Assembly: GCA_040289515.1 (NCBI GenBank)
Contig: PSLI01000017.1
Location: 1 to 40,285 of the forward strand
Source of the DNA: Candidatus Sysuimicrobiota bacterium
GTDB lineage: Bacteria > Sysuimicrobiota > Sysuimicrobiia > Sysuimicrobiales > Sysuimicrobiaceae
Direction: 5' to 3'
Length of the DNA: 40,285 nucleotides
Shown here piece by piece: positions 4,211-19,340 of the stretch (the first letter of the stretch is position 1; every line of letters starts with the position of its first letter). A model generated the notes under the pieces. The model ran no database searches. It had not been told where the DNA came from and was given only the letters and a program-made list of their open reading frames with translations. The position numbers and the translations under genes were made by a program.

Positions 4211-4229
4211 GCGATAGCCGGATTCCAAC

Positions 4230-4415
4230 GCGCCGGGCCTCCCGTCGGCCGTACACGTGGGTGAGCCCTGCCAGGGTGTTCAAAAGCGTCATCTTCACCC
4301 CTCCGGTGGAGCCCAGCACCCCACCACTTCCCCAGCCCGGACCGCCCGGCTCACGTCGTTCAGGGCCACGGCGTTCTGGTAGTACACGGGGAGGGCGTGG
4401 GACTCAAGCAAGCGT
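4230..4415 (-). pseudogene. N-terminal remnant of a LivF-like ABC ATPase
   Basis: VYYQNAVALNDVSRAVRAGEVVGVLGSTGGVKMTLLNTLAGL, a degenerate Walker A region. Confidence 0.65.
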
Positions 4416-4419
4416 CGCT

Positions 4420-4810
4420 ACTTCCCCGCCCCGGTAGGCGCGGCGCACTTCTTCCCTGGCCAGAACCTCCTCGGGGCCCTCCTCGATCTTTCGGCCGAAG
4501 CTCAGCACCACTGCCCGGTTCACCACCTGGAAAGAGCTCTGTCAGCCGGTGTTCCACCAGCACCAGGCTCTTGCCCTCCTGCACGAACCGGACCAGCAGG
4601 GGGATCAGGCTCGCGGACTCCGCAGGGCTCATGCCGGAGAACAGCTCGTCCAGCAGCAGCTCGGCATCCAGGGCCAGACAGCGGGCCGGCTCCAGGCGTT
4701 TCAGGTAGCGGTGGGGAAGCTCACTGGCGGGCTTTCAGATCGAGGGGGCGTCGTGTTCGAACCCCACCTCCTCCATCAGGTCCAAAGCGACCTCCTCCCG
4801 CCCCAGGCCG
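4420..4810 (-). pseudogene. C-terminal remnant of a LivG-like ABC ATPase
   Basis: ELPHRYLKRLEPARCLALDAELLLDELFSGMSPAES...KSLVLVEHRL (signature, Walker B, H-loop), with an internal stop and frameshifts. Confidence 0.7.
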
Positions 4811-4992: not shown

Positions 4993-5802
4993 TCACCCCC
5001 TCGCCTCCTGTTGTTTGCCGGAAGCCTCGCGGTTCCGTGTTGTCCACACGCCCTCCGGGTCGTACTCCCGCAGCACCCCCAGCTCCTCAGCAGAGGGCTG
5101 GGGGGTGGGGCAAGCATCGGGGGCCACCCGCACGGTCCAGCCGGTGTCCTCCAGTACTTCTTCCAGGGATTGGCCGGGGTGCCAGTGCTGTAGCACCGCC
5201 TCGCAGGTCACCGGGTCGAACCGGAACACCGCGCGGTCCGTGATGACCCCCGACGGCCCCCCGCGCGGCAGGCCCACCTGTTCCCGCCAGCCGGGCCCGT
5301 CCCCGTAGCCCGGGGAGGTGAGGAAGTCCACTCGCTCCACCAGCCGGTGGCGGCCGTGGGGAAGGATCACCACCAGCCGCTTGGCCAGGGAGGCGATGTC
5401 CGCAGCACCCCCGCTGCCCGGTAGCTTCACCCGGGGCCGGTCCACGCGCCCGATGTACGAGCTGTTCACGTTCCCATACCGGTCCACCTGGGCGCCGCCG
5501 ATGAACCCCACGTCCACCTCGCCCCGCTGCAGCAGGCCCATCACGTTGGTCATGCGGGTACACCAAACCGCGCCCACGATGTTGGGCGTGTCCGACATCG
5601 TGTACAGCAGCTCCCGGGTGGGAGCGTCCCGCACGACCCCGTTCTCGAACACCCCCACGCAGTGGGGCGCGTGCAGGCGCTTGGCCACGCAGTAGGCCAG
5701 CAGGGGCAGGCGCATACCCACGAACACCACCTCGCCGTCCCGGATCTGCCGGGCCGCGGCCACCACCATGAGCTCACCCACGCTCCATTCCACGGCTTTC
5801 AC
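4993..5802 (-). CDS. Family I CoA-transferase beta subunit (GctB/CatJ-like)
   Basis: ELMVVAAARQIRDGEVVFVG, FENG (catalytic Glu), GGAQVDRYGNVNSS, LPGSGGAADIA. GTG start overlaps the alpha-subunit TGA. Confidence 0.9.
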   Translation of the reverse strand: MKAVEWSVGELMVVAAARQIRDGEVVFVGMRLPLLAYCVAKRLHAPHCVGVFENGVVRDAPTRELLYTMSDTPNIVGAVWCTRMTNVMGLLQRGEVDVGFIGGAQVDRYGNVNSSYIGRVDRPRVKLPGSGGAADIASLAKRLVVILPHGRHRLVERVDFLTSPGYGDGPGWREQVGLPRGGPSGVITDRAVFRFDPVTCEAVLQHWHPGQSLEEVLEDTGWTVRVAPDACPTPQPSAEELGVLREYDPEGVWTTRNREASGKQQEARG

Positions 5803-6725
5803 CAAGCGTAGTCCACGGGCTCGGCGGGTGCCGGCCGCACCCGCCGCAGCTCTCGCCAGCGTGGGCCCAGGCGCCGCAGGTACCCCTCCCGGTCCGGGAC
5901 ATCCAGCACCCAGTCCCGCAACCACCTGTGAAAGCCCTCCTCCGTACGGGTGAGGCGGTGGTATTCCTCGTAGAAGCCGTGGTCCCTGCGGTAGTAGCCC
6001 GGCACGGGGGAGGGGTGGCAGCCGCCGGGGCAGTGCACCACCGCGGACACCTTGAAGCCGGGCACCAGGACCCGGTTGGGGTCGCTGCGGATCACTTCGG
6101 GGCTGACGATCTCCTCCGCCAGCAGCACCACGTGACGGGATGCCAAAGCCGCCTCCTCCGTCACCCCCAGGTTGCCCCACAGGTGCGCGTTGCCTTCCAC
6201 GTCCGCCCGCTGCACAGCCAGGAAGGCCACGTCCGGCTGCACGGCCCTTACCAGCAGCAGGGGCTGACCCGTCCACGGGTCCTGGCCAGGCAAAAAAGCC
6301 TCCCGCCTGCGGGGCACGTCGCTGCCGAGCAGGGATCGGGTGGGGAGGTACGGAACTCCCAGCGCGCCCGCCCACAGGGCCAGGGCCACAGCGAAGTTGG
6401 AGTAGTCCCACACCTCCACACGGCGAGGGTTCCCCTGTTCCGTGGCCCTGCGGTACGCGTGGCCCAACCCCGCGGACACGTTTCCGACCCACGCGGCCAT
6501 CACCCGGGCCACGCAGCCAGCGCCGATGAGCTGGTCGAACAGGATGTCGGAGATGGGCCCCACCAGGGTGAGGTCGCGCTTGCCCTGCCGGATGATCTCG
6601 TGTCCCGCCGCGAAGGGGATGAGGCTTTCCAGGCACGTGCCCATCGCCACGGTGGCCCCGTCGGGCACAAAGCGGGACACCGCCTCGGAGAGGCTCTGCA
6701 GCTTACCGCCCAGCTTCAGGCCCAC
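5799..6725 (-). CDS. Family I CoA-transferase alpha subunit (GctA/CatI-like)
   Basis: SLSEAVSRFVPDGATVAMG, IPFAAGHEIIRQG, DQLIGAG, QRADVEGN, GGCHPS. Start approximate (RBS GGAGGT). Confidence 0.9.
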   Translation of the reverse strand: MGLKLGGKLQSLSEAVSRFVPDGATVAMGTCLESLIPFAAGHEIIRQGKRDLTLVGPISDILFDQLIGAGCVARVMAAWVGNVSAGLGHAYRRATEQGNPRRVEVWDYSNFAVALALWAGALGVPYLPTRSLLGSDVPRRREAFLPGQDPWTGQPLLLVRAVQPDVAFLAVQRADVEGNAHLWGNLGVTEEAALASRHVVLLAEEIVSPEVIRSDPNRVLVPGFKVSAVVHCPGGCHPSPVPGYYRRDHGFYEEYHRLTRTEEGFHRWLRDWVLDVPDREGYLRRLGPRWRELRRVRPAPAEPVDYAW

Positions 6726-7728
6726 CACCTCCCACCTCTGCCCGGGACGCACCGCCTGCGAGGCCGGCGGGCCGGAATGCGGGGCGGAGCCGGTGCGATA
6801 GCGCCCCCTGGACCAGGGGCACAGCACCTTGGCGGAAGACCAAGAACAGCACCACCAGCAGCACGCCGTATGCGAGGACCGTGAGCTGGCCAAACGGACG
6901 CACCAGCTCGTCCACCGCGCTGAACAGAACAGCGCCCACCAAGGGACCCAGCAGGGTCCGCATCCCGCCCAGCAGGAGGGCGATCAGCACGGGGATATCC
7001 ACGTGGCCGACCGTGTACACGGACGGGCTGATGAAGCCGTTCAGGTCCGCGTACAGGGCACCCACCAGCCCCACCAGCCCGGAGGAAGCGGTGGCGCAGG
7101 CCACCTTGTACCGGGTGACGTCGATGCCCGACAGCTCCGCGCTCACCTCGTCCTCGCTGAGGGCGTGCAGGGCCACGCCGTGCGGGGAGCTGAACAGCCA
7201 GCGGTAAGCCCACAGGGACGCCACCAGGACCGCCAGCAGGGTGTAGTAGGCACGGTAGGGGTCCTCCGCCAGCCCCACCCCCAGCCCTCGGGTCACGATG
7301 CCCGTCTCGCCGTTGGTAACTTCCCGAAGCCCCAGAAGCAGGTTGTGCAGCATCAAGGACACCGCCAGAGTCACGATCCCCACGAACAGCACCCCGAAGC
7401 CCCGGCGCACGCTCACGTAGCTCAGAAAGCCGCCCACTCCGGCGCTCAGGACCGCGGCCACCCCCACGGCGGCCAGCGGGAAAACGTGCAAGTCCCGCAC
7501 CAACAGTACCGATCCGTAGCCACCCAGGCTGGCCAGGGCGCCCACGCACAAAAACAGCTGGTTGGTGTGCCCAAACAGCACGTTGAAGGCCACCGCGTAG
7601 CTGGCCAGCACCAGCATCAGGGTGGCAATCCGCATCTGGTAGGGGCTGCCCCCCAGCACCGCGGGGACCGCGCTCAGCACCGCGGCCGCGGCCAGCACCG
7701 GCAGGGCCTTGCGGACGCTGGGGCTCAT
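6703..7728 (-). CDS. livM: Branched-chain amino acid-type ABC transporter permease (LivM-like)
   Basis: Hydrophobic; TNGETG, ALHALSEDEVSAELSGID, LLGGMRTLLGPLVGA. ATG overlaps the livH-like stop. Confidence 0.85.
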   Translation of the reverse strand: MSPSVRKALPVLAAAAVLSAVPAVLGGSPYQMRIATLMLVLASYAVAFNVLFGHTNQLFLCVGALASLGGYGSVLLVRDLHVFPLAAVGVAAVLSAGVGGFLSYVSVRRGFGVLFVGIVTLAVSLMLHNLLLGLREVTNGETGIVTRGLGVGLAEDPYRAYYTLLAVLVASLWAYRWLFSSPHGVALHALSEDEVSAELSGIDVTRYKVACATASSGLVGLVGALYADLNGFISPSVYTVGHVDIPVLIALLLGGMRTLLGPLVGAVLFSAVDELVRPFGQLTVLAYGVLLVVLFLVFRQGAVPLVQGALSHRLRPAFRPAGLAGGASRAEVGGGGPEAGR

Positions 7729-8579
7729 GGCCAGTACGCCAGCAGCCCCTCGGGCCGCACCAGCAGGGTCGCCACCGCCACCGCCAGCAGGGCGATCCAC
7801 GTAAGGTAGGTGCCCACCCAGTAGCTCAAAGCCGCGTTCACCACGCCCAGCAGCAGGCTCGCGAGGAAGGTGCCCGCTAAGCTGCGCACGCCCCCCACCA
7901 CCGCCACGATCAAGCTGAGGATGGTGAACTCCGGGCCCATGTCCGGCCCCAGGTAGGAGAAAAACCCTTGCCCCAGGGCTGCCACCCCCGCGAGAGCTCC
8001 GCTCGCGAACAGGGTGACGGTGCGGGCCTGCTCCACGTCCACGCCGCACAGCAGGGCCCCCGCCTCGTTCTGGATGATGCACCGCACGGCCTTGCCCAGG
8101 CGGGTCCCCTTGAGGAAGGCCAGCAGCAGACCGAACGTAGCCAACGACAGGGCACCTACGGCCAGGCTCGCGGTGCGCACCGTGACCCCCAGCACCTCCA
8201 CGGAGGGGTTTGTCAGCCGCAGGCTGAGGGCCACGTTGGGGAAGCGCAGGGTGAACAGGCCGTCCAGGGCGAAGGAAGCCCCGAGGGTGAGGATCAGGGC
8301 CAGCAGCAGCCGTTCCTCTCCCCGGCGGCGGTAGGCCGCCTGCAGCAAGCTCCGGTCCAACAGCAGTGCCGCCAGGCCGGCAGCCAGCACGCCCACCACA
8401 CCGCTTAGCACCGGGTGCTGGCGCGCCTGCAGCATGAGCGCGGTAGCCAGCCCGCCCAGCACCGCCACCTGCCCGTGGGCCAAATTCAACACGCCCCCCA
8501 GTCCGTACACGAACACGATCCCCACCGAAAGCAGCGCCAGCTGCAGCCCCAGCACCAGCCCGTCCAGGACCACGCCCAT
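7725..8579 (-). CDS. livH: Branched-chain amino acid-type ABC transporter permease (LivH-like)
   Basis: GGVLNLAHG, TRLGKAVRCIIQNEAGALLCGVD, VVGGVRSLAG. Confidence 0.88.
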   Translation of the reverse strand: MGVVLDGLVLGLQLALLSVGIVFVYGLGGVLNLAHGQVAVLGGLATALMLQARQHPVLSGVVGVLAAGLAALLLDRSLLQAAYRRRGEERLLLALILTLGASFALDGLFTLRFPNVALSLRLTNPSVEVLGVTVRTASLAVGALSLATFGLLLAFLKGTRLGKAVRCIIQNEAGALLCGVDVEQARTVTLFASGALAGVAALGQGFFSYLGPDMGPEFTILSLIVAVVGGVRSLAGTFLASLLLGVVNAALSYWVGTYLTWIALLAVAVATLLVRPEGLLAYWP

Positions 8580-8584
8580 GGGGC

Positions 8585-9286
<702 letters not shown>

Positions 9287-9288
9287 CG

Positions 9289-10098
9289 TCAGACCACCCC
9301 GCTGGCCGCGTCCGCGGTGGCGTCCTGGACTCCCATGGTAGGCCCGCCTACATCCTGGAAGTCCACACCCAGGTACGCTTCCACCACCGCCGGATCCCTG
9401 GCCACCTGCGCCGACGAGCCCTGCGCGATCACCGCCCCGTGGTCCAGCACCACTACCCGCTCCACGGTCCCCAGGACCGCGTCCATCACGTGCTCCACCC
9501 ACAGCACGGCCACGCCGCGCTCCTCCCGCACTCGCCGCAGCAGCAGGGTGCAGTGCTGGATCTCCACCGGGTTCAGCCCGCTCATCAGCTCGTCCACCAG
9601 CAGCAGCCTCGGCTGGCCAGCCAGGGCCCGCGCCAGGTCCACGAGCCGCTTCTCCTGGGTGTTGAGCCTGCCCACGGGCTCCTGGTGGCGATCCTGCAGG
9701 CCCACCAGCTCCAGGGCCTCCGCCACCCGCCGCCATGCCTGCGCGGGGGTGGGCGTGTGCGGGGAGCCGAACAGAGCCCCGATCCGCACCGTCTCCTCCA
9801 CCGTGAGGCTGGGGAACAGCCGTGGGATCTGCAGCACCCGCCCCACCCCCCGGCGCACCACCGCGTGCGCCGGCAGCCCCGAGACCGGTTCCCCTGCCAG
9901 CTCCACCACTCCGCGGTCCGGACGCGCCAGCCCGCAGATGACGTTCAGGAGGGTGGTTTTGCCGGCCCCGTTGGGGCCGATCAGCCCCACGAACCCCGCA
10001 GGCTCCACCTCCAGCGTCACGTCCCGCAGGGCCACCACCCCGCCGAACCGCTTGGTGACGCCCCGGCACCGCAGCAGGGCGTTATTCGCTCGGGACAT
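9289..10098 (-). CDS. livG: ABC transporter ATP-binding protein (LivG-like)
   Basis: KRFGGVVAL, GPNGAGKTT, LLLVDELMSGLNP, VEHVM, VVEAYLG. Confidence 0.92.
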   Translation of the reverse strand: MSRANNALLRCRGVTKRFGGVVALRDVTLEVEPAGFVGLIGPNGAGKTTLLNVICGLARPDRGVVELAGEPVSGLPAHAVVRRGVGRVLQIPRLFPSLTVEETVRIGALFGSPHTPTPAQAWRRVAEALELVGLQDRHQEPVGRLNTQEKRLVDLARALAGQPRLLLVDELMSGLNPVEIQHCTLLLRRVREERGVAVLWVEHVMDAVLGTVERVVVLDHGAVIAQGSSAQVARDPAVVEAYLGVDFQDVGGPTMGVQDATADAASGVV

Positions 10099-11278
10099 AG
10101 GGCTCCACGGGCGTGCTGCGGAACTGGTACTTCTGGGCCCACCCGCAGCCTGGACACACCCCGCCCGCGGGTTCGCCCCGCTCGATGGTGAAGAACACGA
10201 TGCGGACGTTTTTCATCTCGCCCCACTCCGTGTACGACAGGGGCCACGCGTAGCCCGGCTGCACGAAGCGGCCCTTGCGGATCTGCTCCGCGATGGCCCG
10301 GGGATCCGTGCTGCCCGCCTTCCTGGCCGCCTCCGCCACCATGCGGACGATCACGTAGCCGGAAAACGCGCTGTTGTCAAAGTACCGCTTGTACAGGCCG
10401 TAGTACTTGGCCGCCAGTTGCCGGAAGGCGGGAGTGGTGAAGTCCACGCAGGAGTAGTCCAGAAACCGGCCGAACACCGCCTCCCCGCCCCGCGCCACCA
10501 TGAGCTCGGGGGGCAGGACGGAGCCGATGGCCTGCTGGCGCATGCCCAGCTCTGCAGCCTGACGTACGATGATGGGGTTGCCCGGCGGGTGCCCCGCGAT
10601 CACCAGCACCTGCGGGTCGAAGGCCTGCAGCCGCCGTAGGTAGGGGGTGAAGTCCGCGGCGGTCACGGGGGCCACCTCCGTCTGGACCCGCACACCCGGC
10701 AGGCTGGCCACGTACCGCTCCACCGCCTCCCGGATGGAGTGGCCCCACGCGTAGTCCGCGATGATGTTGCCCACCCGTGTGTGCTTGGCGTGCTTGACCA
10801 TGGCCGCGATGGCCTGCACGTACATGGGAGCTGCCGCCAGGCACGTGCGGAAGGTGAACCGGCTGCTCTTGCGCAGGATGGCGTGCGAGCCCGCCATGGT
10901 AAGGAACAAAGGCACCCGCAGGCTCTCCGCCTCCCGGGAGGCCGCCAGGGCCACGTCGCTGCTGATGACCCCTCCTGCGGCCGCGATCCCCTCCCGCTCC
11001 ACCAGGGCGCGGAAGGCGCTGATGGCCTCCGCGGGGCTGTTCCGGTCGTCCCGCTCCACGAACTCCACCGGCCGGCCCAGCACCCCGCCGGCCTCGTTCA
11101 GCTCCGAGACGGCCATCCGCATACCGTCGCGGGCGTTCACGCCCCAGAAGGCAAACGGGCCGCTGAGGGAGCTGAGGAAGGCTACCTTCAGGGGCCTGGG
11201 CTGGGCGCCCCCGAAGCTAGCCAGCACCGCCAATGCTAGGGCTACCGCGCACAGCGCCGCTAGGCCTCGACCCTTCAC
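10082..11278 (-). CDS. ABC substrate-binding protein, Liv/periplasmic binding protein type 1 family (probably an aromatic acid ligand)
   Basis: Signal peptide, SLSGPFA, GGVLGRPVEFVERDD, ADYAWGHS. Ligand inferred from context. Confidence 0.9.
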   Translation of the reverse strand: MKGRGLAALCAVALALAVLASFGGAQPRPLKVAFLSSLSGPFAFWGVNARDGMRMAVSELNEAGGVLGRPVEFVERDDRNSPAEAISAFRALVEREGIAAAGGVISSDVALAASREAESLRVPLFLTMAGSHAILRKSSRFTFRTCLAAAPMYVQAIAAMVKHAKHTRVGNIIADYAWGHSIREAVERYVASLPGVRVQTEVAPVTAADFTPYLRRLQAFDPQVLVIAGHPPGNPIIVRQAAELGMRQQAIGSVLPPELMVARGGEAVFGRFLDYSCVDFTTPAFRQLAAKYYGLYKRYFDNSAFSGYVIVRMVAEAARKAGSTDPRAIAEQIRKGRFVQPGYAWPLSYTEWGEMKNVRIVFFTIERGEPAGGVCPGCGWAQKYQFRSTPVEPYVPSE

Positions 11279-11324
11279 GTCCCACCACCTCCTCCTCGTC
11301 CGTTCTGCGCGAACACCGCCGTTT

Positions 11325-11342
11325 ACCTTACCACGCGGTCAA
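11325..11342 (-). promoter_or_regulatory. Degenerate operator copy (site 4) overlapping an extended -10 (TGgTAAGGT) upstream of the ABC genes
   Basis: CTTACCACGCGGTCAA (11327-11342) resembles the 16-bp palindromes at 19211/19241/19304. Confidence 0.55.
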
Positions 11343-11396
11343 CCGCCCCGTCATGGCGCGCCCGGACCAGCGCACCTGGTACAGACGGCCCACGCC

Positions 11397-12968
11397 TTAG
11401 CCCACCTGCGAGGCTACAGGGGGCCCGGATTCCCGCAGCTTGAACCGCTGGATCTTCCCCGTCACGGTCTTGGGCAGGTCCTCGGTGAACGTCACGTAGT
11501 GGGGGTACCTGTAGCGCGCTAGGCGCTCCTTGCACCACTCCTGCAGCTCCTGGGCGAGGGCCTCGGAGGGTGCCCGGCCCGGCTTGAGGACCACGAAGGC
11601 CCGGATGCGGGTGAGCCCCTCCACGGGAATCCCCACCACCGCGGCCTCCTGCACCGCCGGGTGCTCGATGAGGGTGTTCTCGATCTCCACGGGCGACACC
11701 CACAGCCCCCCGACCTTGATCATGTCGTCGCTGCGGCCCTCGTACCAGTAAAACCCCTCCTCGTCCACCCGGTAGCGGTCCCCCGTATAGAACCAGCCGC
11801 CGTGCAGGCTGCGCTTGGTCTTCTCGTGCTGGTGCCAGTACAGAGCCAGCTCGCTGTCGCCCTTCACGTACAGGTCGCCCACCTCCCCCGGTGCCACCGG
11901 CTGGCCCGTGTCGGGGGACACGATCTTCAGCTCGTAGCCCGGGACCGGCCTGCCGGAGGATCCCGGCTTGAGGGCCTCCGGGGTGTTGGAACAGTAGATG
12001 TGCAGCATCTCCGTGGACCCCACCCCGTCCAGGATCACCAAGCCGAAACGTTCCTTCCACCGGTGGAAGATCTCCGCGGGCAGCGCCTCCGCCGCGGACA
12101 CGCACAGCCGTACGCCGGAGAGGTCGTACCGCCCGCAGTTCGGATGGTTCAGGATGGCGTTGTACAGGGTGGGCACGGCGAAAAACAGCGTAGGCCGGTA
12201 GCGCTGGATGGTCTCCAGCACCCCCTCCGGGGTAGGCCGCCCGGAGCGCAGCACCGTGGATGCCCCCGCCCAGTACGGGAAGCTCAGGTTGTTGCCCAGG
12301 CCGTAGGCGTGGAAGAGCTTGGAGGCGGAGAAGGTGACGTCCTCCTGCGTGATCCGCAGCACGTGGCGGGCGTACGTCTCACACGTATACAGGATGTCGT
12401 GCTGCAGGTGCACCACGCCCTTGGGGCGCCCCGTGGACCCGGAGCTGTACAGCCAGAAAGCCATGTCATCCCGGTGGGTGTCCGCGGGGGGCAGGTCCCC
12501 CGCGTAGGCCTGCACCAGCTCCTCCAGGTGCGGCTGGCCCTCCCCCGCGGGGCGCGAGGCCAGCACCAGGGGTGGTTCTGCCAAAGCGGAGCAAACCTCC
12601 CGCACCACGTCCAGCAGGGGCGGGTCGGCCACCACCGCCCGGGCACCGCTGTCCAGGAGGAAGTACGCGTAGTCGTCCGAGCGCAGAAGCGGGTTGGTGG
12701 GGATGGGGACCGCGCCGGTCCGGATCGCCCCCAGGAACGCCACCGGGAACGCGGGGCTGTCGTCCAGCACCAGCAACACCCGCTCTTCCCGCCGTACCCC
12801 CAGCGCCCGCAGGGCCCGGGCGAATCCGCACACCCGGCGGTACACCTCCCCGTACGTGACCTCCTGGTCCTGCCAGCGGATGCACACCTTGTGCGCGAGG
12901 CCCCGTCCCAGGTTGCGGTCTAGCAGCGTGCTGGCGTTGTACCGCTCGGGGATGTCGAGGAGGCTCAC
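11397..12968 (-). CDS. Benzoate-CoA ligase family protein
   Basis: IPERYNAS..LDRN, DDMAFWLYSSGSTGRPKGVVHLQHD, SKLFHAYGLGN, DGVGSTEMLHIY, DDMIKVGGLWVSPVEIE, LPKTVTGKIQRFKLR. These are BadA/BclA-type motifs, not PaaK-type. GTG overlaps the ALDH stop. Confidence 0.9.
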   Translation of the reverse strand: MSLLDIPERYNASTLLDRNLGRGLAHKVCIRWQDQEVTYGEVYRRVCGFARALRALGVRREERVLLVLDDSPAFPVAFLGAIRTGAVPIPTNPLLRSDDYAYFLLDSGARAVVADPPLLDVVREVCSALAEPPLVLASRPAGEGQPHLEELVQAYAGDLPPADTHRDDMAFWLYSSGSTGRPKGVVHLQHDILYTCETYARHVLRITQEDVTFSASKLFHAYGLGNNLSFPYWAGASTVLRSGRPTPEGVLETIQRYRPTLFFAVPTLYNAILNHPNCGRYDLSGVRLCVSAAEALPAEIFHRWKERFGLVILDGVGSTEMLHIYCSNTPEALKPGSSGRPVPGYELKIVSPDTGQPVAPGEVGDLYVKGDSELALYWHQHEKTKRSLHGGWFYTGDRYRVDEEGFYWYEGRSDDMIKVGGLWVSPVEIENTLIEHPAVQEAAVVGIPVEGLTRIRAFVVLKPGRAPSEALAQELQEWCKERLARYRYPHYVTFTEDLPKTVTGKIQRFKLRESGPPVASQVG

Positions 12969-14413
12969 CCGCTCCCCCCTTCTAGGGCCCGGACCACCAC
13001 GGACTTCGTCTCCATGTAATAGTCTAGCGCCTCCAGCCCGTGCTCCTTGCCGAACCCGCTCTGCTTGACCCCGCCGAAGGGGAGCTCGTCGTAGATCCGG
13101 TTTACGGAGTTCACCCACGTATAGCCGGCTTCCAGCCGTTCCGCGGCCAGGGACGCCCGTTCCAGGCTGCGGGTCCAGATGGAGGAACCCAGGCCGTACG
13201 GAGAGTCGTTGGCGCGCTCAAGGGCCTCCTCCAGATCATGAACGCGCCAGACGGGCAGCACCGGGCCGAACACCTCCTCCTGTGCCACCCGGGAGTGCGG
13301 ATCGGGGTCCAGCAGCACCGTGGGCTCGTAGAAGAAGCCCCGCTGCAGCCGCGGTTCCTCGGGCCTCCTGCCCCCCGCCAGCAGCCGCGCCCCGCGATCC
13401 AGGGCGTCCTGCACCTGCTGCTCAATGCGCTCCCTCTGGCGCTGCATGTGCAGGGGCCCCAGGTGTACACCCTCCTCCAGGCCGGGGCCCACCCGCAGCC
13501 GCCGCACGCGCGCCAGCAGCTTTTCCAGGAACTGCTCCGCTACGGACTCAAACACGTACAGGCGCTTGACGGCCACGCAGGCCTGCCCGCAGTTGAAGAA
13601 CCTGCCCACGCTGGCGGCGCCGGCGGCGGCGTCCAGGTCCGCGTCGTCGCACACGATCATGGGGTCGGAGCCCCCCAGCTCCAGGGTCACGCGCTTCACG
13701 CCTTCCGCCGCCAGGGCCATGATGCGCTTGCCCACCTCCGTGGACCCGGTGAACGCCACCTTGCGCACCAGGGGGTGGCGCACCAGGGCTTCCCCGGCCA
13801 CCGGCCCGATGCCGGTGATTACGTTAAACACGCCCGCGGGCAGGCCCCCCTCGCGCAACAGCTGCGCGATCCGAAGGGTCGTAAGCGGGGTGGTCTCCGC
13901 AGGCTTGGCCACCACGGTATTCCCCGCCACCAGGGCGGGACCCAGCTTGTTGCCCAGCAGGGTGGTGGGGAAGTTCCACGGGACGATGGCGGCCACCACG
14001 CCCATGGCGCGCTTCAACACCAGCCCGTAGGTACCCTCGTCCAGGTTGGGCACGTACCCACCCCGCAGGTTCCGGCCGAGGCCCGCGTAATGCACCAGGG
14101 TTTCCACGAACCTGCGGATCTCCAGGCGCGACTCCCGCAGGGGCTTGCCCTGCTCGCGGGTGAGGCTGTGGGCCAGCTCCTCCAGATGGTGGTGGACGTG
14201 CTGCGCCGCACGCAGGAGGATGTCGCCCCGCCGGGCCGCAGGGGTGGCCGACCAGCTCTGGAAGGCCTCGTGGGCGTTGCGAACCGCCAGGTCCACCTCC
14301 TCCGGGCCCGCCAGGGGCACGGTGTCCACCACTTCCTCCGTGGCGGGGTCCACCACCGGGAACCGCTCCCCCTCGGCGCGCACGAACTCCCCGCCGATGA
14401 ACATCTCTGCCAC
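12965..14413 (-). CDS. NAD(P)-dependent aldehyde dehydrogenase (copy 2)
   Basis: IVPWNFP, KPAETTP, FTGSTEVG, LELGGSDP (Glu), FNCGQACV (Cys), EEVFGPV. Confidence 0.93.
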   Translation of the reverse strand: MAEMFIGGEFVRAEGERFPVVDPATEEVVDTVPLAGPEEVDLAVRNAHEAFQSWSATPAARRGDILLRAAQHVHHHLEELAHSLTREQGKPLRESRLEIRRFVETLVHYAGLGRNLRGGYVPNLDEGTYGLVLKRAMGVVAAIVPWNFPTTLLGNKLGPALVAGNTVVAKPAETTPLTTLRIAQLLREGGLPAGVFNVITGIGPVAGEALVRHPLVRKVAFTGSTEVGKRIMALAAEGVKRVTLELGGSDPMIVCDDADLDAAAGAASVGRFFNCGQACVAVKRLYVFESVAEQFLEKLLARVRRLRVGPGLEEGVHLGPLHMQRQRERIEQQVQDALDRGARLLAGGRRPEEPRLQRGFFYEPTVLLDPDPHSRVAQEEVFGPVLPVWRVHDLEEALERANDSPYGLGSSIWTRSLERASLAAERLEAGYTWVNSVNRIYDELPFGGVKQSGFGKEHGLEALDYYMETKSVVVRALEGGSG

Positions 14414-14422
14414 GGCGGCCTC

Positions 14423-15196
14423 CTAGTTCCCGCGGAACTGCGGGGCCCGCTTCTCCAGGAAGGCGCGGATTCCCTCCTGGGCGTCCTGTGTTCGGAACAG
14501 GCCGTCCACCAGCTCCCGTTCCAGCCGCAACCCGTCCTCCAGGGGCCGCTCCAGGCCCAGCCGCACGGCCAGTTTGATGGCGCCCACGGCGCGCACCGCG
14601 CCCGCGGCCAACCGGGCTGCGTAGGCCGCGGTGTGTTCTGCCAGGCGGTCCGCGGGCCACAGCCGGTCCAGGATGCCGCACGCGTGCGCCTCTTCGGGCG
14701 ACAGGGTGCGGCCGGTCACCATCAGGTCCAGGGCCCTGCTCCAGCCCACCAGGCGTGGCAGCCTCTGGGTGCCCCCGTTGCCGGGCAGCAAGCCCAGCGT
14801 CACCTCGGGCAGGCCCAGACGGTAGTCCCCCTGGGCCCCGAACCGCAGGTCGCACGCCAGGGCGATCTCCAGCCCTCCCCCCAAGGCGTGGCCCGCGATC
14901 TGCGCCACGAACACCTTCGGGACCGTGGCGATGCGGCCCAGAACCTGGTGTGCGTAGCGCACCAGGTCCATGTTGCGCTCCGGGGGGTTCTCCGCGAACG
15001 CCCGCACGTCCGCGCCCGCGGAGAAGAAACGCTCCAGGGCGCTGCGGACCACCACCACCCGGACCTCCGGGTCCTGTTCGGCCTGCTGCAGGGCCCGGTC
15101 CAGCTCCTGCAGAAACCCGTGGTCGTAGCTGTTAGCGGGAGGCCGGTTCAGGATCACGTAGCCCACCGCACCTTCCCGCAGGAACTCCACCGCCAT
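14423..15196 (-). CDS. Enoyl-CoA hydratase/isomerase (crotonase) family protein
   Basis: FSAGADV, GHALGGGLEIALACD, GLPEVTLGLLPGNGGTQRL, EGIRAFLEKRAP. RBS GGAGGAGG. Confidence 0.92.
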   Translation of the reverse strand: MAVEFLREGAVGYVILNRPPANSYDHGFLQELDRALQQAEQDPEVRVVVVRSALERFFSAGADVRAFAENPPERNMDLVRYAHQVLGRIATVPKVFVAQIAGHALGGGLEIALACDLRFGAQGDYRLGLPEVTLGLLPGNGGTQRLPRLVGWSRALDLMVTGRTLSPEEAHACGILDRLWPADRLAEHTAAYAARLAAGAVRAVGAIKLAVRLGLERPLEDGLRLERELVDGLFRTQDAQEGIRAFLEKRAPQFRGN

Positions 15197-15218
15197 CTCG
15201 TCCCTCCTCCGGTGGCTG

Positions 15219-16670
15219 TCAGGCGAGGCCACCCACCACCACAGACTTCAGCTCCACGTAGTAGTCCAGCGCTTCCAGCCCGTGCTCCTTGCCGAACCCG
15301 CTCTGCTTGACCCCGCCGAAGGGGAGCTCGTCGTACCCGTAGTGCACCTGGTTCACCCACGTCATCCCCGCCTGCAGCTCGTGGATGGCGCGGTGGATCC
15401 ACCGCACGTTGAAGGTCCAGATGGAGGAACCCAGGCCGTACGGGCAGTCGTTGGCCAGACGGATGGCCTCATCCAGGTCCCGCACGCGGAACACGGGCAG
15501 CACCGGACCGAACACCTCCTCCTGCACCACCCGGGAGTCATGGGGCACGTCCACCAGGACCGTGGGTTCCAGGAAGTAGCCCCGCTCGCGCCCCTCGGGG
15601 ATTCTGCCCCCGTAGGCCACCCGCGCTCCGCGATGCAGAGCCTCCTGCATCTGCTCCAGCACCTCCTCCCGCTGACGCGCGGTGTGCAGGGGGCCCATGC
15701 GGATCTTGGGCCGGGGGGGCTTGATCCACCCTTCCCCGGGTTCGTACCGGCTGACCCCGGCCAGGAGCTTGTCCACGAAGGCGTCGTACACCTCCTCGAA
15801 AACGTACACCCGCTTGGCCGCCAGACAGCTCTGCCCGCAGTTCCAGTAGCGGCCCACCAGCACCCCCCGTACCGCCTGGTCCAGGTCCGCGTCCGAGCAC
15901 ACGATCACGGGATCCGAGCCACCCAGCTCCAACGTCACGCGCTTGAAAGCAGGGCCCGCGATCTCCATCACCCGCCGGCCCGTGGCGGTCTGCCCCGTGA
16001 AGGCTACCCGCACCACGTCGGGGTGCGCCACCAGGTGCTCGCCCACCGTGGTGCCGGGCCCGGTGACCACGTTGAGCACGCCTGGGGGAAGGCCTGCTTC
16101 CTGGAGCAGACCCACCACGCGGGTGGCGGCCAGGGGTGTGGTGCTGGCAGGTTTGACCACCACCGTGTTGCCCGCCACCAAAGCGGGGCCGATCTTGGTG
16201 CCCATGAGGGTCAAGGGGTAGTTCCAGGGGACGATGGCCGCCACCACACCCAAAGGACGGCGCACCACCAGCCCGAAGGAAGGGCCCAGGTGGCCCGGCA
16301 GGGGTACGTAGCTGCCGCGGAGCTTCGTGGCGAGGTCCGCGTAGTATTCCAGCCCGTGCAGCAGGTGGTTCAGCTCCGCCAGGGCCTCGTGGGTAGGCTT
16401 GCCCTGCTCGCGCACCAGCAGGTTGACCACCTCGTCCTGGTGCGCCCGCACGCGCTCAATCCCTTGGCGCAGTAGCTGCGCGCGGTGTTCGGGGTCGGTG
16501 CGGGACCACTCCGGGAAGGCCGCCCTCGCCGCGGCCACTGCACGGTCCACATCCTCCGGGCTGGCTTGGGGGACGGTATCCACCACCTCGCCCGTGGCAG
16601 GGTTGGTGACCGCCAGCTCGGCCTTGGAGGCGCTGTCCACCCACTCCCCAGCCACCAGCATCTTCGCCAT
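15219..16670 (-). CDS. NAD(P)-dependent aldehyde dehydrogenase (copy 1)
   Basis: IVPWNYP, KPASTTP, FTGQTATG, LELGGSDP, WNCGQSCL, EEVFGPV. Confidence 0.93.
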   Translation of the reverse strand: MAKMLVAGEWVDSASKAELAVTNPATGEVVDTVPQASPEDVDRAVAAARAAFPEWSRTDPEHRAQLLRQGIERVRAHQDEVVNLLVREQGKPTHEALAELNHLLHGLEYYADLATKLRGSYVPLPGHLGPSFGLVVRRPLGVVAAIVPWNYPLTLMGTKIGPALVAGNTVVVKPASTTPLAATRVVGLLQEAGLPPGVLNVVTGPGTTVGEHLVAHPDVVRVAFTGQTATGRRVMEIAGPAFKRVTLELGGSDPVIVCSDADLDQAVRGVLVGRYWNCGQSCLAAKRVYVFEEVYDAFVDKLLAGVSRYEPGEGWIKPPRPKIRMGPLHTARQREEVLEQMQEALHRGARVAYGGRIPEGRERGYFLEPTVLVDVPHDSRVVQEEVFGPVLPVFRVRDLDEAIRLANDCPYGLGSSIWTFNVRWIHRAIHELQAGMTWVNQVHYGYDELPFGGVKQSGFGKEHGLEALDYYVELKSVVVGGLA

Positions 16671-16694
16671 CGATCCACCTCCCGCGCGGTGTGG

Positions 16695-16859
16695 TTAACA
16701 CCAGCGGATCACCTCGAAGGGGCTGTGGCACCGCCTGCACAGGTACGCGTGGGTAAGGAGCTGCGGGCCGAACTCGCCCACCCGCTCCACCTCCTCGGCC
16801 CCGCACCACGGGCACCGCACCCCGGATGTGGGGCCCTCCACCTCCTCTTGAGCCGCCAC
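16695..16859 (-). CDS. 54-aa zinc-ribbon protein homologous to the PaaD C-terminal domain (not in ORF track)
   Basis: Manual translation MAAQEEVEGPTSGVRCPWCGAEEVERVGEFGPQLLTHAYLCRRCHSPFEVIRWC*. CPxC...FG...CxxC.PFE pattern, RBS GGAGGAGG, and it fills the gap between the paaC-like gene and ALDH. Confidence 0.85.
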   Translation of the reverse strand: MAAQEEVEGPTSGVRCPWCGAEEVERVGEFGPQLLTHAYLCRRCHSPFEVIRWC

Positions 16860-16871
16860 CTTGCCCTCCTC

Positions 16872-17555
16872 CTAGGCAGCGCCCACCGCCTCCACCACCC
16901 CGCAAAGCTCCCGCAGCCCGGCACGCACCGCGTCCAGGTAGCGCGCCCGCAGCCCCTCGCTTTCTCCGTCCACCACACCTGCGGCCTGCAGCACCCCCAG
17001 GCCCGCGGTCGCCGATGACAGCCAGTCCAGCACCTCCGCCATACGGGCCGCCAGTAGAGGCCTTGCCCTGCGGGACGCGTCCTCCTGCAGCAGCGCCCGC
17101 ACGCGGGCCCAGCCGAACACGGAGTGGAACCACTCCTCCTCCACGATGCGGCAGGCCCGCCGGGCCAGCTCCCCGTGCGCGGAGCTCGTGGCGGCCTGCA
17201 GGAGCACCGTCAGGGCGCTGTCCACCAGAGCCAAGCTGACCACCGCCTCGGGCCAGCTGGGCCAGGGGCTGGTCAGGAAGGCCGGGCAGAAGTACTGCGA
17301 GCGGTCCTGTTCCCGTTCCAGGGGCACCACGGGGACGTGTAGGGGGAGCTCGCCCAGAAGAGGGTACAGCACCCGCGCGTGTCCCAGCTCCTCCTGCGCG
17401 ATGGCCGCGCACGCCACCGCGCTTTCCAGCTCCGGGGCGCCCACGCACCAGTCCGCCACCCGGCGGCCCAGGAAAAACTTGGCATCCGCCAGAGAGGCGA
17501 TCAGGGAGCCCAAGGCTTCACAGGTGGGTCCCGGCTCCGTCCACGGGGCCTGCAA
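16872..17555 (-). CDS. paaC: PaaC-like ferritin-fold subunit of an aryl-CoA epoxidase
   Basis: LADAKFFLGRRVADWCVGAPELESAVACAAIAQEELGHAR...IVEEEWFH. TTG start after GGAGGAGGT. Confidence 0.82.
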   Translation of the reverse strand: MQAPWTEPGPTCEALGSLIASLADAKFFLGRRVADWCVGAPELESAVACAAIAQEELGHARVLYPLLGELPLHVPVVPLEREQDRSQYFCPAFLTSPWPSWPEAVVSLALVDSALTVLLQAATSSAHGELARRACRIVEEEWFHSVFGWARVRALLQEDASRRARPLLAARMAEVLDWLSSATAGLGVLQAAGVVDGESEGLRARYLDAVRAGLRELCGVVEAVGAA

Positions 17556-17763
17556 TCTCCACCTCCTCCGCGCCGCCGGGTGCCCCGGGGGATCCCACCA
17601 CCCAGTGCGCGTCCGGCTCGGGCACCAGGACCAGCTCCACCCAACCATCCCCGAACCGCGCCTCGGCCAGCTGTCGGGCCAGGTCCTCGTCCGTGGCCTC
17701 CAGCACGCCCCGGTGTTCCAGGGGCTGCGCGTAGCAGGTCCGGCCGAACACCCAGTAGCGCAT
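17518..17763 (-). CDS. Second PaaB-like small protein (81 aa)
   Basis: MRYWVFGRTCYAQPLEHRGVLEATDEDLA...WVELVLVP aligns by eye with the adjacent YEVFARHGVEPVRHVGSVRATSPEEA...WSELFVVP. ATG overlaps the upstream TGA. Confidence 0.65.
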   Translation of the reverse strand: MRYWVFGRTCYAQPLEHRGVLEATDEDLARQLAEARFGDGWVELVLVPEPDAHWVVGSPGAPGGAEEVEIAGPVDGAGTHL

Positions 17764-17960
17764 CAGTCCGGCTCCACCACCCGCACCAGCCGATCCCGCG
17801 GCACCACGAACAGCTCCGACCACCCGCGCTCGTCGTACAGGGTGTACGCGTACACCCCCGCCTCCTCCGGGCTGGTGGCCCGCACGCTGCCCACGTGCCG
17901 CACGGGCTCTACGCCGTGGCGGGCGAACACCTCGTACACCGCAGGCAGCAGCCCGGACAC
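17763..17960 (-). CDS. paaB: PaaB-like small subunit (65 aa)
   Basis: YEVFAR...HVGSVRA.SPEEA...LFVVPR, the typical PaaB pattern. Confidence 0.8.
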   Translation of the reverse strand: MSGLLPAVYEVFARHGVEPVRHVGSVRATSPEEAGVYAYTLYDERGWSELFVVPRDRLVRVVEPD

Positions 17961-18266
17961 CTACACCACCCCCGCCTCCCGCAACCGTTGCAGCCCCTCG
18001 GGGGTGATATCCGCCCGGGACCACCGCTCGAAGACCTGCTCCACGACCACTTCCCGCACGCCTTCCAGCTGCTGTACCGCGCGCCGAACGTCCTCCCGGA
18101 TGAGCTCCACACACGGACAGCCCAGGGAGGTCAAGGTGATCCGGACCCGCACCACGTCCCCGTCCACCTCTACCCCCCGCACCAGCCCCAGGTCCACCAC
18201 GCTCACGGGAAACTCCGGGTCCAGGATGGACCGCAGGACTTGTCGCACCTCCTCCGGGCTGGGCAC
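17961..18266 (-). CDS. paaD: DUF59/PaaD N-terminal domain protein (metal-centre maturation)
   Basis: LRSILDPEFPVSVVDLGLVRGV...ITLTSLGCPC...WSRADITPEG. Ends without the Zn-ribbon tail. RBS AAGGAG. Confidence 0.85.
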   Translation of the reverse strand: MPSPEEVRQVLRSILDPEFPVSVVDLGLVRGVEVDGDVVRVRITLTSLGCPCVELIREDVRRAVQQLEGVREVVVEQVFERWSRADITPEGLQRLREAGVV

Positions 18267-18277
18267 GGCTTTCTCCT

Positions 18278-19195
18278 TTATGCCGCCAGCTGGCGGTAGG
18301 CCCGCTGCAGCTGGAAGACCAGCTCCCCGTTGGCGGGCCCCCGCCGGCGCCAGCGCTGCAGCACCTGATCCCACGACACCGGGCCGTCCTCGAACCGCCA
18401 CCGCTTGTTCTCCTCGTCGAACTCCGCCGGGAACGGGCAGTCGACCACGTACTGACCCAGCTGCGGGTCGTAGTGGGCCGGCACCCGCAGCCCCAGCCGC
18501 TCGCACAGGGGGACCGCGGTGGACATCCACTCCTGGCGGAGCTGGTCGTTGGTGGATCCCTTCAGGCCGTACTCGATCTGCTCGGTGTGCCGCTTCAGGT
18601 GGTCCGGCAGCCCGAACCACTCCAGGGTCATGACGAACATCCAGTCCACGGCCCGTTGCAGCTCCTCTCTCGTGGCGGGGTTAGCGGCCAGGATTTCCAT
18701 CCACCGCTCGCCGTGGCGCAGGTGGAAGTTCTCCTCCCGGTCCACCTTCACCAGGGCCCGCTTCCACGGGCCGTAGCTGGTGTGCCGGAAGATGTCCCCC
18801 AAAAGCACGAAGCCCGCGCGGTCGTAGAAGGCGTTGGCCACCACCAGCTCCGTCCAGCTGTCCAGGGGCACGTCGAAAGCGTACGGGTGCTTGAAGTCCC
18901 TGGGATCGCGCTCGTACACCAGCTGCCGGGTGTTCACCCCCAGGTCCTCCAAAAGCCGGTAGGCGATGTGGGCGTGGCCCAGCTCGTCCTGGATGATGCC
19001 CAGGGCCGACACGTAGGCGTTCAAGGAGGGCGCGTGGCGGGCGGCGCGCAGGTAGGCGGGGGCGCTGATGAGCTCCGTGTCCGCGGACACGATCAGGGTG
19101 CGCTTGAGCCCCTCTAGGTAGCGCTCCGTGGCGTGCTGGGGCCCCTCCACCAATTTCCCCTCTCGGATCCGCTGCAGCAGGGCCTGCTCGTCCAC
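18278..19195 (-). CDS. paaA: PaaA-like di-iron catalytic subunit of an aryl-CoA epoxidase
   Basis: ADTE, APSL, QDELGH, YDRAG, TSYGPW, EENFHLRHG, LEWFG. Di-iron ligand set of the PaaA family. Confidence 0.88.
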   Translation of the reverse strand: MDEQALLQRIREGKLVEGPQHATERYLEGLKRTLIVSADTELISAPAYLRAARHAPSLNAYVSALGIIQDELGHAHIAYRLLEDLGVNTRQLVYERDPRDFKHPYAFDVPLDSWTELVVANAFYDRAGFVLLGDIFRHTSYGPWKRALVKVDREENFHLRHGERWMEILAANPATREELQRAVDWMFVMTLEWFGLPDHLKRHTEQIEYGLKGSTNDQLRQEWMSTAVPLCERLGLRVPAHYDPQLGQYVVDCPFPAEFDEENKRWRFEDGPVSWDQVLQRWRRRGPANGELVFQLQRAYRQLAA

Positions 19196-19210
19196 AGCCC
19201 ACCTCCGTAC

Positions 19211-19226
19211 TTAACCGGTCGGTCAA
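19211..19226. promoter_or_regulatory. Palindromic operator site 1 (near the predicted +1 of the paaA-like operon)
   Basis: TTAACCGGTCGGTCAA, a 16-bp imperfect palindrome. Confidence 0.8.
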
Positions 19227-19256
19227 ACCCTACTCCTATGTTAACCGAGCGGTCAA
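19227..19256 (-). promoter_or_regulatory. Promoter of the paaA-like operon overlapped by operator site 2
   Basis: TTGACC-18 bp-TAGGGT. The -35 is one half of palindrome TTAACCGAGCGGTCAA (19241-19256). Confidence 0.7.
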
Positions 19257-19303
19257 GAAGCCGTTAGCGCGTTTGGAACAGGCGGATCGGTGCAGCGGGC
19301 GCA

Positions 19304-19332
19304 TTGACGGTACGGTCAAGGACCTGTGCCAT
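19304..19332 (+). promoter_or_regulatory. Operator site 3 and divergent promoter
   Basis: TTGACGGTACGGTCAA (19304-19319). TTGACG-17 bp-TGCCAT (weak -10) just upstream of GTG at 19341. Confidence 0.6.
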
Positions 19333-19340
19333 GGGGCGCG

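Follow-up and report, generated by a model that had tools for sequence, protein, structure and literature searches.

Which aromatic ring is opened by an operon that joins an oxygenase of the phenylacetate (Paa) type to a ligase of the benzoate type? The question is raised by 40,285 nt of DNA from a Candidatus Sysuimicrobiota bacterium (hereafter the window; contig PSLI01000017.1, our contig C43 of genome G000: 1.99 Mb, 96.7% complete, 0.25% contaminated), in which such genes occupy positions 4993 to 19195 of the minus strand. Of the two ring epoxidases described so far, PaaABCE acts strictly on phenylacetyl-CoA and BoxAB strictly on benzoyl-CoA (PMC4498308). Based on sequence comparison we suggest, at a probability of roughly 60%, that the operon serves aerobic benzoate degradation and combines a BadA-type ligase with a benzoyl-CoA epoxidase of Paa architecture that replaces BoxB and with a single-domain, BoxC-like hydrolase.

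A paa-type oxygenase outside canonical PaaA

The outermost gene of the run (18278–19195) encodes a 305-aa PaaA-like catalytic diiron subunit. It scored 116 bits against TIGR02156 (cut-off 280), below membership in canonical PaaA; a canonical PaaA from locus L206, where a cluster of the present kind and a canonical paa cluster lie side by side, scored 452. Identity was 29% to E. coli PaaA and 20% to BoxB of Mycetohabitans. The AlphaFold model (predicted local distance difference test 91.7) adopts the PaaA fold, and all six diiron ligands named for PaaA (PMC4498308) are kept (E41, E71, H74, D125, E155 and H158, corresponding to canonical E42, E72, H75, D126, E155 and H158).

Trees were computed with FastTree (79 sequences of A, C and three BoxB-type proteins) and in two IQ-TREE runs (26 and 37 A/BoxB sequences, hand-chosen from fetched loci). 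Canonical PaaA was monophyletic (ultrafast bootstrap, UFBoot, 97 and 100) to the exclusion of the window protein, which grouped with proteins from Thermus plasmids, Rubrobacter, Thermoleophilia, Chloroflexota, Bacillota and Haloarchaea (UFBoot 92). Here, we denote this group clade II; with a sister pair from Agrobacterium and Natrialbaceae included, its support was 97. Identities to the window protein were 79–80% for Thermus plasmid proteins, 79% for a protein of T. oshimai, 49–55% for Bacillota and 51–55% for haloarchaeal proteins, and the closest named relatives of the gene (86–90%) are in the metagenome-assembled genomes Candidatus Tepidifontimicrobium thermophilum and Bacterium HR32. Three of four constrained placements inside PaaA were rejected by the approximately unbiased (AU) test (p = 0.036, 0.027 and 0.027). 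The Paa-fold oxygenase of the original prediction was supported, and the trees put it outside canonical PaaA; nesting within canonical PaaA, which that prediction had named as contrary evidence, did not appear in the maximum-likelihood trees. The existing database label of clade-II proteins is PaaA.

Two branches deserve mention in their own right. The sister pair, encoded on plasmids of Agrobacterium (L089) and Natrialbaceae (L128), is 37–39% identical to the window protein and has other pocket residues and ligases. A Sulfobacillus-type sub-branch of clade II (L139, L144; 47–48%) is accompanied by genes for a short-chain dehydrogenase/reductase (SDR), a PaaK-like ligase, an FAH hydrolase and gentisate/aminosalicylate-dioxygenase-like proteins; it may act on another aroyl-CoA.

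The substrate pocket (S37, T40, S44, Y48, I67, F107, Y124, G128 and L132) departs from that of PaaA. The canonical H38, S41, G45, A129 and Q133 are replaced by S37, T40, S44, G128 and L132, and I67 stands at the position of the Lys68 bridge, a PaaA feature (PMC4498308). At E. coli positions 41, 45, 68, 129 and 133, canonical PaaA has S, G, K, A and Q (10 of 10 sequences) and the BoxB type T, S, V, G and L (3 of 3); the window protein has T, S, I, G and L, and Bacillota relatives have T, S, I or V, G and L. Four pocket residues are shared with BoxB, and, like BoxB, the protein has a hydrophobic residue in place of the bridging lysine. Among the BoxB residues that orient the benzoyl ring, which include Thr119 and Ser123 (PMC5489048), T119, S123 and F193 are kept, as are the equivalents of G214 and L218; Q116 and T210 are not.

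Membership in BoxB itself was not found either. G000 had no match to TIGR03225, BoxB is a monomer of about 475 aa, and searches of the Protein Data Bank (PDB) with the sequence and profile of the window protein did not reach BoxB by sequence. Across the phylum, BoxB exceeded the cut-off in none of 94 genomes, nor did it in 5 further genomes. Likeness to BoxB over the whole sequence was tried as support and dropped: the median scores against a three-sequence BoxB profile (24.5 for 25 clade-II and sister proteins, 13.8 for 9 canonical PaaA) overlap widely, and weak TIGR03225 matches of clade-II proteins in five genomes do not count as support because PaaA-bearing control genomes also match at E ≤ 1. 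Separately, G062 encodes a short BoxB-like protein (L123:1033–2154; 373 aa, 37% identical to BoxB, below the cut-off), an unclassified type of diiron epoxidase, next to a crotonase without the two glutamates.

The following genes complete, by sequence, a multicomponent set of the paa A/B/C/D type, and G000 encodes no PF05138 pair besides A and C. A DUF59/FeS_assembly_P protein (17961–18266), identified by profile matches, corresponds to the N-terminal half of PaaD, and a Zn ribbon (16695–16859; CxxC...CxxC; PF23451, 51.6 bits against a cut-off of 27) to its C-terminal half. Between them lie two PaaB-like small subunits and a PaaC-like structural subunit. B1 (17763–17960) matches PF06243 (E = 3.6e-5) and, by profile, E. 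coli PaaB; B2 (17518–17763) is a paralog of B1 (hhalign probability 98, E = 1e-13) that aligns weakly with E. coli PaaB and has no Pfam match. The PaaC-like protein (16872 to about 17513, the approximate position of a likely TTG start) carries Lys at the first iron-ligand position.

With PaaABC(D)E of E. coli and K. pneumoniae (3PW1, 4IIT) the window thus shares the ferritin-like fold, the diiron ligands, a catalytic A, a structural C, PaaB-type subunits, a PaaD-type factor and a TetR operator like that of PaaR. It differs in sequence and clade, in the replaced pocket and Lys68/Glu49 bridge, in having two PaaB-type genes, in the DUF59 gene directly after A and in the benzoate-CoA ligase as partner. 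PaaE, PaaZ, PaaG and PaaK are missing from the operon, and a search of the window agreed with the original prediction that it holds no PaaK, PaaE, PaaZ or BoxB. The split PaaD and missing PaaE were dropped as distinguishing marks, because canonical haloarchaeal paa clusters show both.

Ligase, crotonase and dehydrogenases

The ligase (11397–12968) scored 600 bits against TIGR02262 (cut-off 375), and its best PDB matches are the benzoate-CoA ligases BadA and BclM (4EAT, 2V7B; E = 6e-148 for 2V7B and 2e-140). All six residues named for the narrow benzoate cavity of BadA (Y228, G327, S328, T329, H333 and I334; PMC7277991) are kept, the equivalent of A227 too, and the same cavity residues recur in nearly all ligase copies of the related clusters. 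This supports the predicted Bcl/BadA-type ligase, a type known from the box pathway, with the benzoate pocket intact. A His at the Phe226 position and the coupling to a Paa-type oxygenase set it apart from BadA and BclM.

The crotonase between the two aldehyde dehydrogenases (ECH1, 14423–15196, 257 aa) has both catalytic glutamates, as have PaaF and the N-terminal domain of BoxC and unlike PaaG; it groups by itself. In seven of nine genomes (G000, G019, G025, G029, G095, G096 and G097) it is the best crotonase on the BoxC model, with 59.6 bits in G000 against 53.9 for the next. This supports the earlier proposal of a BoxC analogue, and ECH1 is likely, on its sequence, the epoxide/oxepin dihydrolase in the role of BoxC. 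The scores are far under the cut-off and so provide a lead rather than BoxC membership; no protein in the nine genomes exceeded it, and neither two-domain BoxC (about 550 aa) nor BoxA was found in G000. The Bacillota orthologue of ECH1 matches PDB entry 2PPY (E = 4e-126; GK1992 of G. kaustophilus), a solved crotonase that is the orthologue of ECH1 in Geobacillus-type genomes. A second crotonase, lacking the first glutamate, occurs in other loci (L022, L026, L087 and others) but not in the operon of the window; in each of the 31 loci with both genes it comes after the ribbon gene, usually together with a PaaY-like gene.

The aldehyde dehydrogenases ALD1 (15219–16670; assigned by profile match and neighbourhood) and ALD2 (12965–14413; by neighbourhood) are paralogs (56%) and do not resemble BoxD or PaaZ. 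Both had been read as BoxD analogues, which their neighbourhoods do not support: ALD1 and ECH1 are direct neighbours in all 50 loci where they occur together, ALD1 abuts the ligase in none of 28 loci, and ALD2 abuts the ligase in 22 of 30. From this split, one of the two is more likely a feeder enzyme. ALD1 is likely the dehydrogenase of the ring-cleavage semialdehyde, in the role of BoxD without being an orthologue of BoxD or PaaZ, and ALD2 likely a feeder that turns benzaldehyde into benzoate. No close relative of ALD1 was found among solved structures.

Downstream of the ligase lie, by profile matches, five genes of a Liv-type ATP-binding cassette (ABC) transporter (6703–11278: binding protein 10082–11278, ATPases 9289–10098 and 8585–9286, permeases 7725–8579 and 6703–7728) and a family I CoA-transferase of the GctAB type (4993–6719: A about 5799–6719, B 4993–5793). 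The two-subunit type was confirmed by the best match of B to 1POI_B (E = 2e-45) and by a Glu aligned with the VESG motif of GctB, presumably the catalytic residue. Its predicted part in the pathway shrank to an accessory one, as the gene occurs in only 2 of 80 and 11–13 of 75 related loci (see below).

Altogether, the run has, on the minus strand, the genes and the order that the original prediction gave. Its tight packing was confirmed as well, since 15 of 16 junctions measure at most 24 nt, the exception being a 118-nt gap between the genes of the ligase and the ABC binding protein; the claim that most genes are translationally coupled was somewhat overstated, with about five overlaps and one uncertain start.

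A cassette conserved across phyla

A scan of GTDB with the window A protein yielded 314 relatives, and neighbours were counted in the best 80 of these, at identity thresholds set by us and with shuffled gene orders and many short contigs. DUF59 was found in 79 of the 80 loci, B1 in 76, C in 73, the ribbon in 72 and B2 in 62. ALD1 followed with 54, ECH1 with 51, ALD2 with 45, a PaaY-like gene with 43, TetR with 34, the benzoate-CoA ligase (Bcl) with 33, the second crotonase with 31, an amidohydrolase (a label resting on the annotation of L087) with 26, MaoC with 12, the CoA-transferase with 2 and PaaK with none; nor was a PaaG-like gene found near clade-II A in any locus at 45% identity. The recurrence of the six-gene cassette in 62–79 of 80 loci, depending on the gene, shows that the run is not a chance assembly. 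Bcl is present in 24 of the 43 loci of at least 17 kb. These figures are counts rather than tests, because kin are not independent. A broader search among 50% representatives gave 910 matches, mostly fragments.

A second scan, seeded from Alicyclobacillus, returned 77 loci, of which 75 were analysed and two fragments dropped. These Bacillota-type loci contain ECH1 (66 of 75), a PaaX-like regulator (64), Bcl (59), a metallo-beta-lactamase (MBL)-fold hydrolase (57), an aldehyde dehydrogenase (43), PaaH (43), PaaJ (36), PaaF (33) and PaaK (1); this single PaaK is part of a neighbouring but separate cluster of canonical paa genes. A "thioesterase" of the Bacillota loci was labelled by sequence reading and had no NCBIfam match at 1e-25. 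Thus, the pairing of PaaA-like protein and Bcl that the original prediction proposed to look for is conserved across phyla, and a pairing with PaaK is not.

In T. thermophilus HB5018 the whole gene set lies on a plasmid. Bacillota and haloarchaeal cassettes have one PaaB-like gene where the window has B1 and B2, and the Bacillota versions differ further by the PaaX-type regulator and the single aldehyde dehydrogenase. Of three haloarchaeal cassettes, two are directly followed by the ECH1 orthologue, and the ligases are more distant (36–37% in two, 26% in one). The haloarchaeal cassettes of L088 and L126 are flanked by two UbiD decarboxylases and a 2Fe-2S ferredoxin, and H. turkmenica also has formate dehydrogenase genes; in these few loci the UbiD and formate dehydrogenase neighbours fit a funnelling to benzoyl-CoA and a release of formate.

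Among 31 genomes of the order, clade-II A occurs in 12 and canonical-scoring PaaA in 12 (including the unpublished G023); five have both (G014, G019, G022, G025 and G028, tree-checked for G014, G019 and G025). In 10 of the 12 clade-II genomes, A shares its contig with a Bcl orthologue. Both types also coexist in G. thermodenitrificans DSM 465, G. jurassicus and P. caldoxylosilyticus (the genomes of L177, L219 and L179), which brings the total to eight genomes, three of them Geobacillus-type.

Other aromatic-acid genes of the genome

Elsewhere in G000, contig C37 carries PaaK-like (580 bits, cut-off 646) and PaaI genes, and contig C49 genes for PaaF-like and PaaG-like (279, cut-off 345) proteins and a 3-oxoadipyl-CoA thiolase. 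Neither the PaaK-like nor the PaaG-like gene is linked to the oxygenase, and searches of the genome found no canonical PaaA, PaaZ, PaaE, PaaX, PaaY or Box genes. The original prediction had named paaG, paaZ and paaK as co-regulated partners elsewhere as a counter-indication, and this applies in part. The PaaK-like and PaaG-like genes, however, do not track clade II because they also occur in relatives without any PF05138 match (PaaK-like in G005, G008, G009 and G017; PaaG-like in G005, G008–G011, G015 and G020). With either phenylacetyl-CoA or benzoyl-CoA as substrate, the hydratase and thiolase of C49 can find a use in the lower pathway.

No electron donor was found in the operon, and G000 has no PaaE, BoxA or FNR-type PF00175 domain; four Fer2 matches lie on its other contigs. 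Among relatives, 8 of 80 loci have a ferredoxin-reductase-like gene, and three haloarchaeal cassettes adjoin a 2Fe-2S ferredoxin gene.

A second CoA-dependent aromatic route of the genome is indicated by sequence on contig C22 (L082, L083), with an anthraniloyl/salicylyl-CoA monooxygenase-reductase (PRK08255, 1300 bits, cut-off 1078) and two more genes of the benzoate-CoA-ligase family.

Proposed pathway and alternatives

Gene content, clade, motifs and co-occurrence were observed as described; from them we infer every reaction of the following route. The Liv transporter would import benzoate, ALD2 would supply it from benzaldehyde, and the BadA-type ligase would convert it to benzoyl-CoA. With the split PaaD as maturation factor, the A/B1/B2/C complex would form 2,3-epoxybenzoyl-CoA; ECH1 would hydrolyse this epoxide to 3,4-dehydroadipyl-CoA semialdehyde and release formate, ALD1 would oxidise the semialdehyde, and PaaF-, PaaH- and PaaJ-like enzymes would finish the route to succinyl-CoA and acetyl-CoA. 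MBL hydrolase and CoA-transferase might salvage C6 acids or lactones that have lost CoA, and TetR would repress the genes through three palindromes until an aroyl-CoA is present. Such a route would parallel the BoxAB/BoxC/BoxD/Bcl system of Azoarcus (Aromatoleum) evansii and Burkholderia in its Bcl-type ligase, its two-Glu crotonase with aldehyde dehydrogenase and its lower pathway to 3-oxoadipyl-CoA. It thereby retains most of the hybrid epoxide pathway originally predicted (oxygenase, ligase, their pairing and the crotonase), the assignment of both dehydrogenases to BoxD being the part given up.

A number of observations weigh against this pathway. Two residues with which BoxB contacts its substrate are replaced: Ser stands for Gln116 in the window protein (Val/Thr in Bacillota), and Tyr/Phe for Thr210. 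The regioselectivity of BoxB is set by the Thr210–Asp211 peptide (PMC5489048), and with both residues replaced the substrate or the position of attack may differ. The model fold is nearer to PaaA (template modelling score, TM, 0.85) than to BoxB (TM 0.60), a placement sister to bacterial PaaA survives the AU test (p = 0.09), and likeness to BoxB over the whole sequence does not discriminate (18.6 bits for the window protein, 11–29 for nine canonical PaaA). ECH1 reaches about 60 bits on the BoxC model against a cut-off of 712, is not the top crotonase in G098, gives way to a match on another contig in G094, and is more identical to PaaF (37%) than to the N-terminal domain of BoxC (33%). Bcl is missing within 10 kb in 19 of the 43 long loci, paa-like neighbours are common in relatives (PaaY-like in 43 of 80, MaoC in 12 of 80, PaaX-like in 64 of 75 Bacillota loci), and G000 has PaaK-like, PaaI and PaaG-like genes yet no canonical PaaA.

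The exchanges of Gln116 for Ser and Thr210 for Tyr would suit a substituted aroyl-CoA as substrate (a heteroaroyl-CoA, or benzoyl-CoA with a hydroxy, methyl or amino group) or an attack on another position of benzoyl-CoA (a 1,2-epoxide, or hydroxylation with a shift towards gentisate). We regard this as unlikely, though it is the alternative that survives best. His333 and Ile334 are kept in nearly all cluster copies of the main ligase. The divergent second ligase with a wider pocket, which stands under common operators in close relatives, would suit other substrates, but it is broken in the window, where the cassette itself is intact. Genes of the amidohydrolase family are found in 26 of 80 loci, HpaB-like and 4-hydroxybenzoyl-CoA-reductase-beta-like genes in four each, and UbiD pairs adjoin haloarchaeal cassettes; such decarboxylases and reductases could equally funnel into benzoyl-CoA. 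The Sulfobacillus-type sub-branch lies beside gentisate-dioxygenase-like genes (TIGR02272, 410 bits, cut-off 442), but its pocket differs (Met108 and Leu125 equivalents), and no gentisate dioxygenase was found in G000.

It is improbable that the enzyme is a divergent phenylacetyl-CoA epoxidase, or one with dual specificity for phenylacetyl- and benzoyl-CoA, that uses unlinked PaaK-, PaaG- and PaaJ-like genes. The PaaA fold, the A/B/C/D architecture, the operator resembling a PaaR site and the PaaY-, PaaX- and MaoC-like neighbours in relatives would all agree with it, as would the genes on C37 and C49 in a genome without canonical PaaA. Against this, PaaA pocket and lysine bridge are replaced, linkage to PaaK is seen in none of the 80 loci and in one of the 75, the PaaK-like and PaaG-like genes are also present where PF05138 is absent, PaaZ is missing from G000, and eight genomes retain canonical PaaA besides clade II. 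A job other than ring opening, such as desaturation or hydroxylation of cyclohexanecarboxyl-CoA with crotonase and dehydrogenases serving beta-oxidation, could draw on a nearby BadH-like SDR (TIGR03206, 300 bits, cut-off 431), an acyl-CoA dehydrogenase and the two glutamates that ECH1 shares with ordinary hydratases, but is very improbable, as the former two genes seldom adjoin the cassette in members of other genera, the ligase matches the benzoate family and falls outside the top 25 on the cyclohexanecarboxylate ligase model, and a dehydrogenase fixed beside the crotonase fits semialdehyde-forming ring cleavage.

Benzoyl-CoA epoxidation by a Paa-type enzyme would also bear on an older finding. 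An aerobic benzoate pathway was reported in A. evansii and Bacillus stearothermophilus (Zaar et al. 2001, PMID 11306574). Geobacillus-type genomes carry the cassette of the window (A 54%, crotonase 43–44%, ligase 47–48% identical) without BoxB or BoxC, and by analogy it is a candidate for the aerobic benzoyl-CoA route of B. stearothermophilus. The low identity of Geobacillus A (only 54%) and a set of compared Geobacillus genomes that excludes strain PK1 weigh against this candidacy. Benzoyl-CoA was reportedly converted there to dehydroadipyl- and hydroxyadipyl-CoA (work of Zaar in 2001), and to our knowledge the oxygenase was never identified biochemically. Feng et al. are said to have labelled, in the 2007 genome of G. 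thermodenitrificans NG80-2, a cluster as benzoate degradation via benzoyl-CoA; we assume that this may be a clade-II cassette, in which case novelty at the annotation level would be lower. Full-text literature searches found no paper on this cluster or clade, with most subscription papers and supplements outside their coverage. A study of T. oshimai JL-2 (Chakraborty et al. 2021, PMC8208148) was dropped as a precedent, as according to a citing passage it concerns decarboxylation of protocatechuate to catechol, although it may mention this cluster.

The cassette is real, conserved and probably mis-annotated, and through it many Gram-positive bacteria, thermophiles and haloarchaea are likely able to degrade benzoate aerobically without Box enzymes. 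At slightly better than even odds, we would go further and regard clade II as a third family of aromatic-ring CoA epoxidases, with Paa architecture, Box-type benzoyl-CoA chemistry, a half-size substitute for BoxC and a donor outside the operon. It would be the missing oxygenase of Geobacillus and of hundreds of Gram-positive, thermophilic, soil and haloarchaeal species, mis-annotated as PaaA and diversified in sub-branches to other aroyl-CoAs. If so, clade II, Paa-like in architecture and partly BoxB-like in its pocket, would supply the enzyme of the 2001 route of B. stearothermophilus, in spite of the missing boxB and boxC in Geobacillus-type genomes, and would offer a natural comparison for what determines substrate and regioselectivity in diiron ring epoxidases. 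PaaA and PaaC have been proposed as markers of phenylacetate degradation (PMC13186573); with clade-II proteins labelled PaaA, such markers would then mis-assign the turnover of benzoate in soils, brines and hot springs. The proposal is testable in cultured Geobacillus, Parageobacillus, Thermus thermophilus HB5018 and Rubrobacter taiwanensis.

Operators and the divergent operon

The system extends past the predicted run, into operators (19211–19319), a divergent operon on the plus strand (19326–24685) and a TetR gene (25180–25782, minus strand). Three palindromic operator-like sites lie in the divergent intergenic region. Site 1 (19211–19226) adjoins the ribosome-binding site of A and has ACCGACCGGT in common with the PaaR operator of B. 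cenocepacia (PMC9493321); site 2 (19241–19256) and site 3 (19304–19319; TTRACCG-N2-CGGTYAA with 1 mismatch) were found by motif scan. The 16-bp palindrome with up to 2 mismatches has four matches in the window, against 0.26 expected, and 28 of 78 related loci carry it in the 250 bp upstream of the A gene, compared with 7 of 1491 random windows. The TetR regulator, with orthologues in 34 of 80 loci, is likely the reader of the three palindromes, judging from sequence and position. A search of 19150–19400 for a sigma-70 promoter found none.

The divergent operon opens with a frameshifted second gene of the benzoate-CoA-ligase family (19326–20509) and a broken PaaF-like enoyl-CoA hydratase (20562–20905), both intact in L001, L002 and L004. 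The intact ligase copies have Ser and Ala at the equivalents of 227 and 333, which by inference from the H333A mutant points to a wider pocket. A PaaH-like 3-hydroxyacyl-CoA dehydrogenase of the lower pathway follows (20927–22618; PRK08268, 518 bits above a cut-off of 508; TIGR02279, 462 below 669). Its open reading frame (ORF) is longer than that of L001 and overruns the next gene by about 85 nt, possibly through a lost stop or a late frameshift. The operon ends with an acyl-CoA dehydrogenase (22533–23723), putatively glutaryl-CoA dehydrogenase-like from a reading of its sequence and below all model cut-offs, and an MBL-fold hydrolase (23720–24685), a possible lactonase with relatives in 11 of 80 and, as counted above, most Bacillota loci.

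Decayed accessory genes occupy positions 24730–28410 around the TetR gene: an IclR fragment (24730–25146), a hemerythrin-like gene (25815–26300), the remnant of an amidohydrolase (27128–27256) and a UbiX-like flavoprotein split across two ORFs (27733–28410), with the BadH-like SDR (26350–27105) intact among them. At the other end of the operon, downstream of the CoA-transferase, positions 3688–4632 hold what is left of an AMP-binding ligase and, probably, of an ABC ATPase; in the relative G004 (L099), a ligase and a second Liv ABC transporter are intact at this place. Positions 1–3650 of the window have a lower GC content, and their shadow ORFs resemble a 16S–23S rRNA region.

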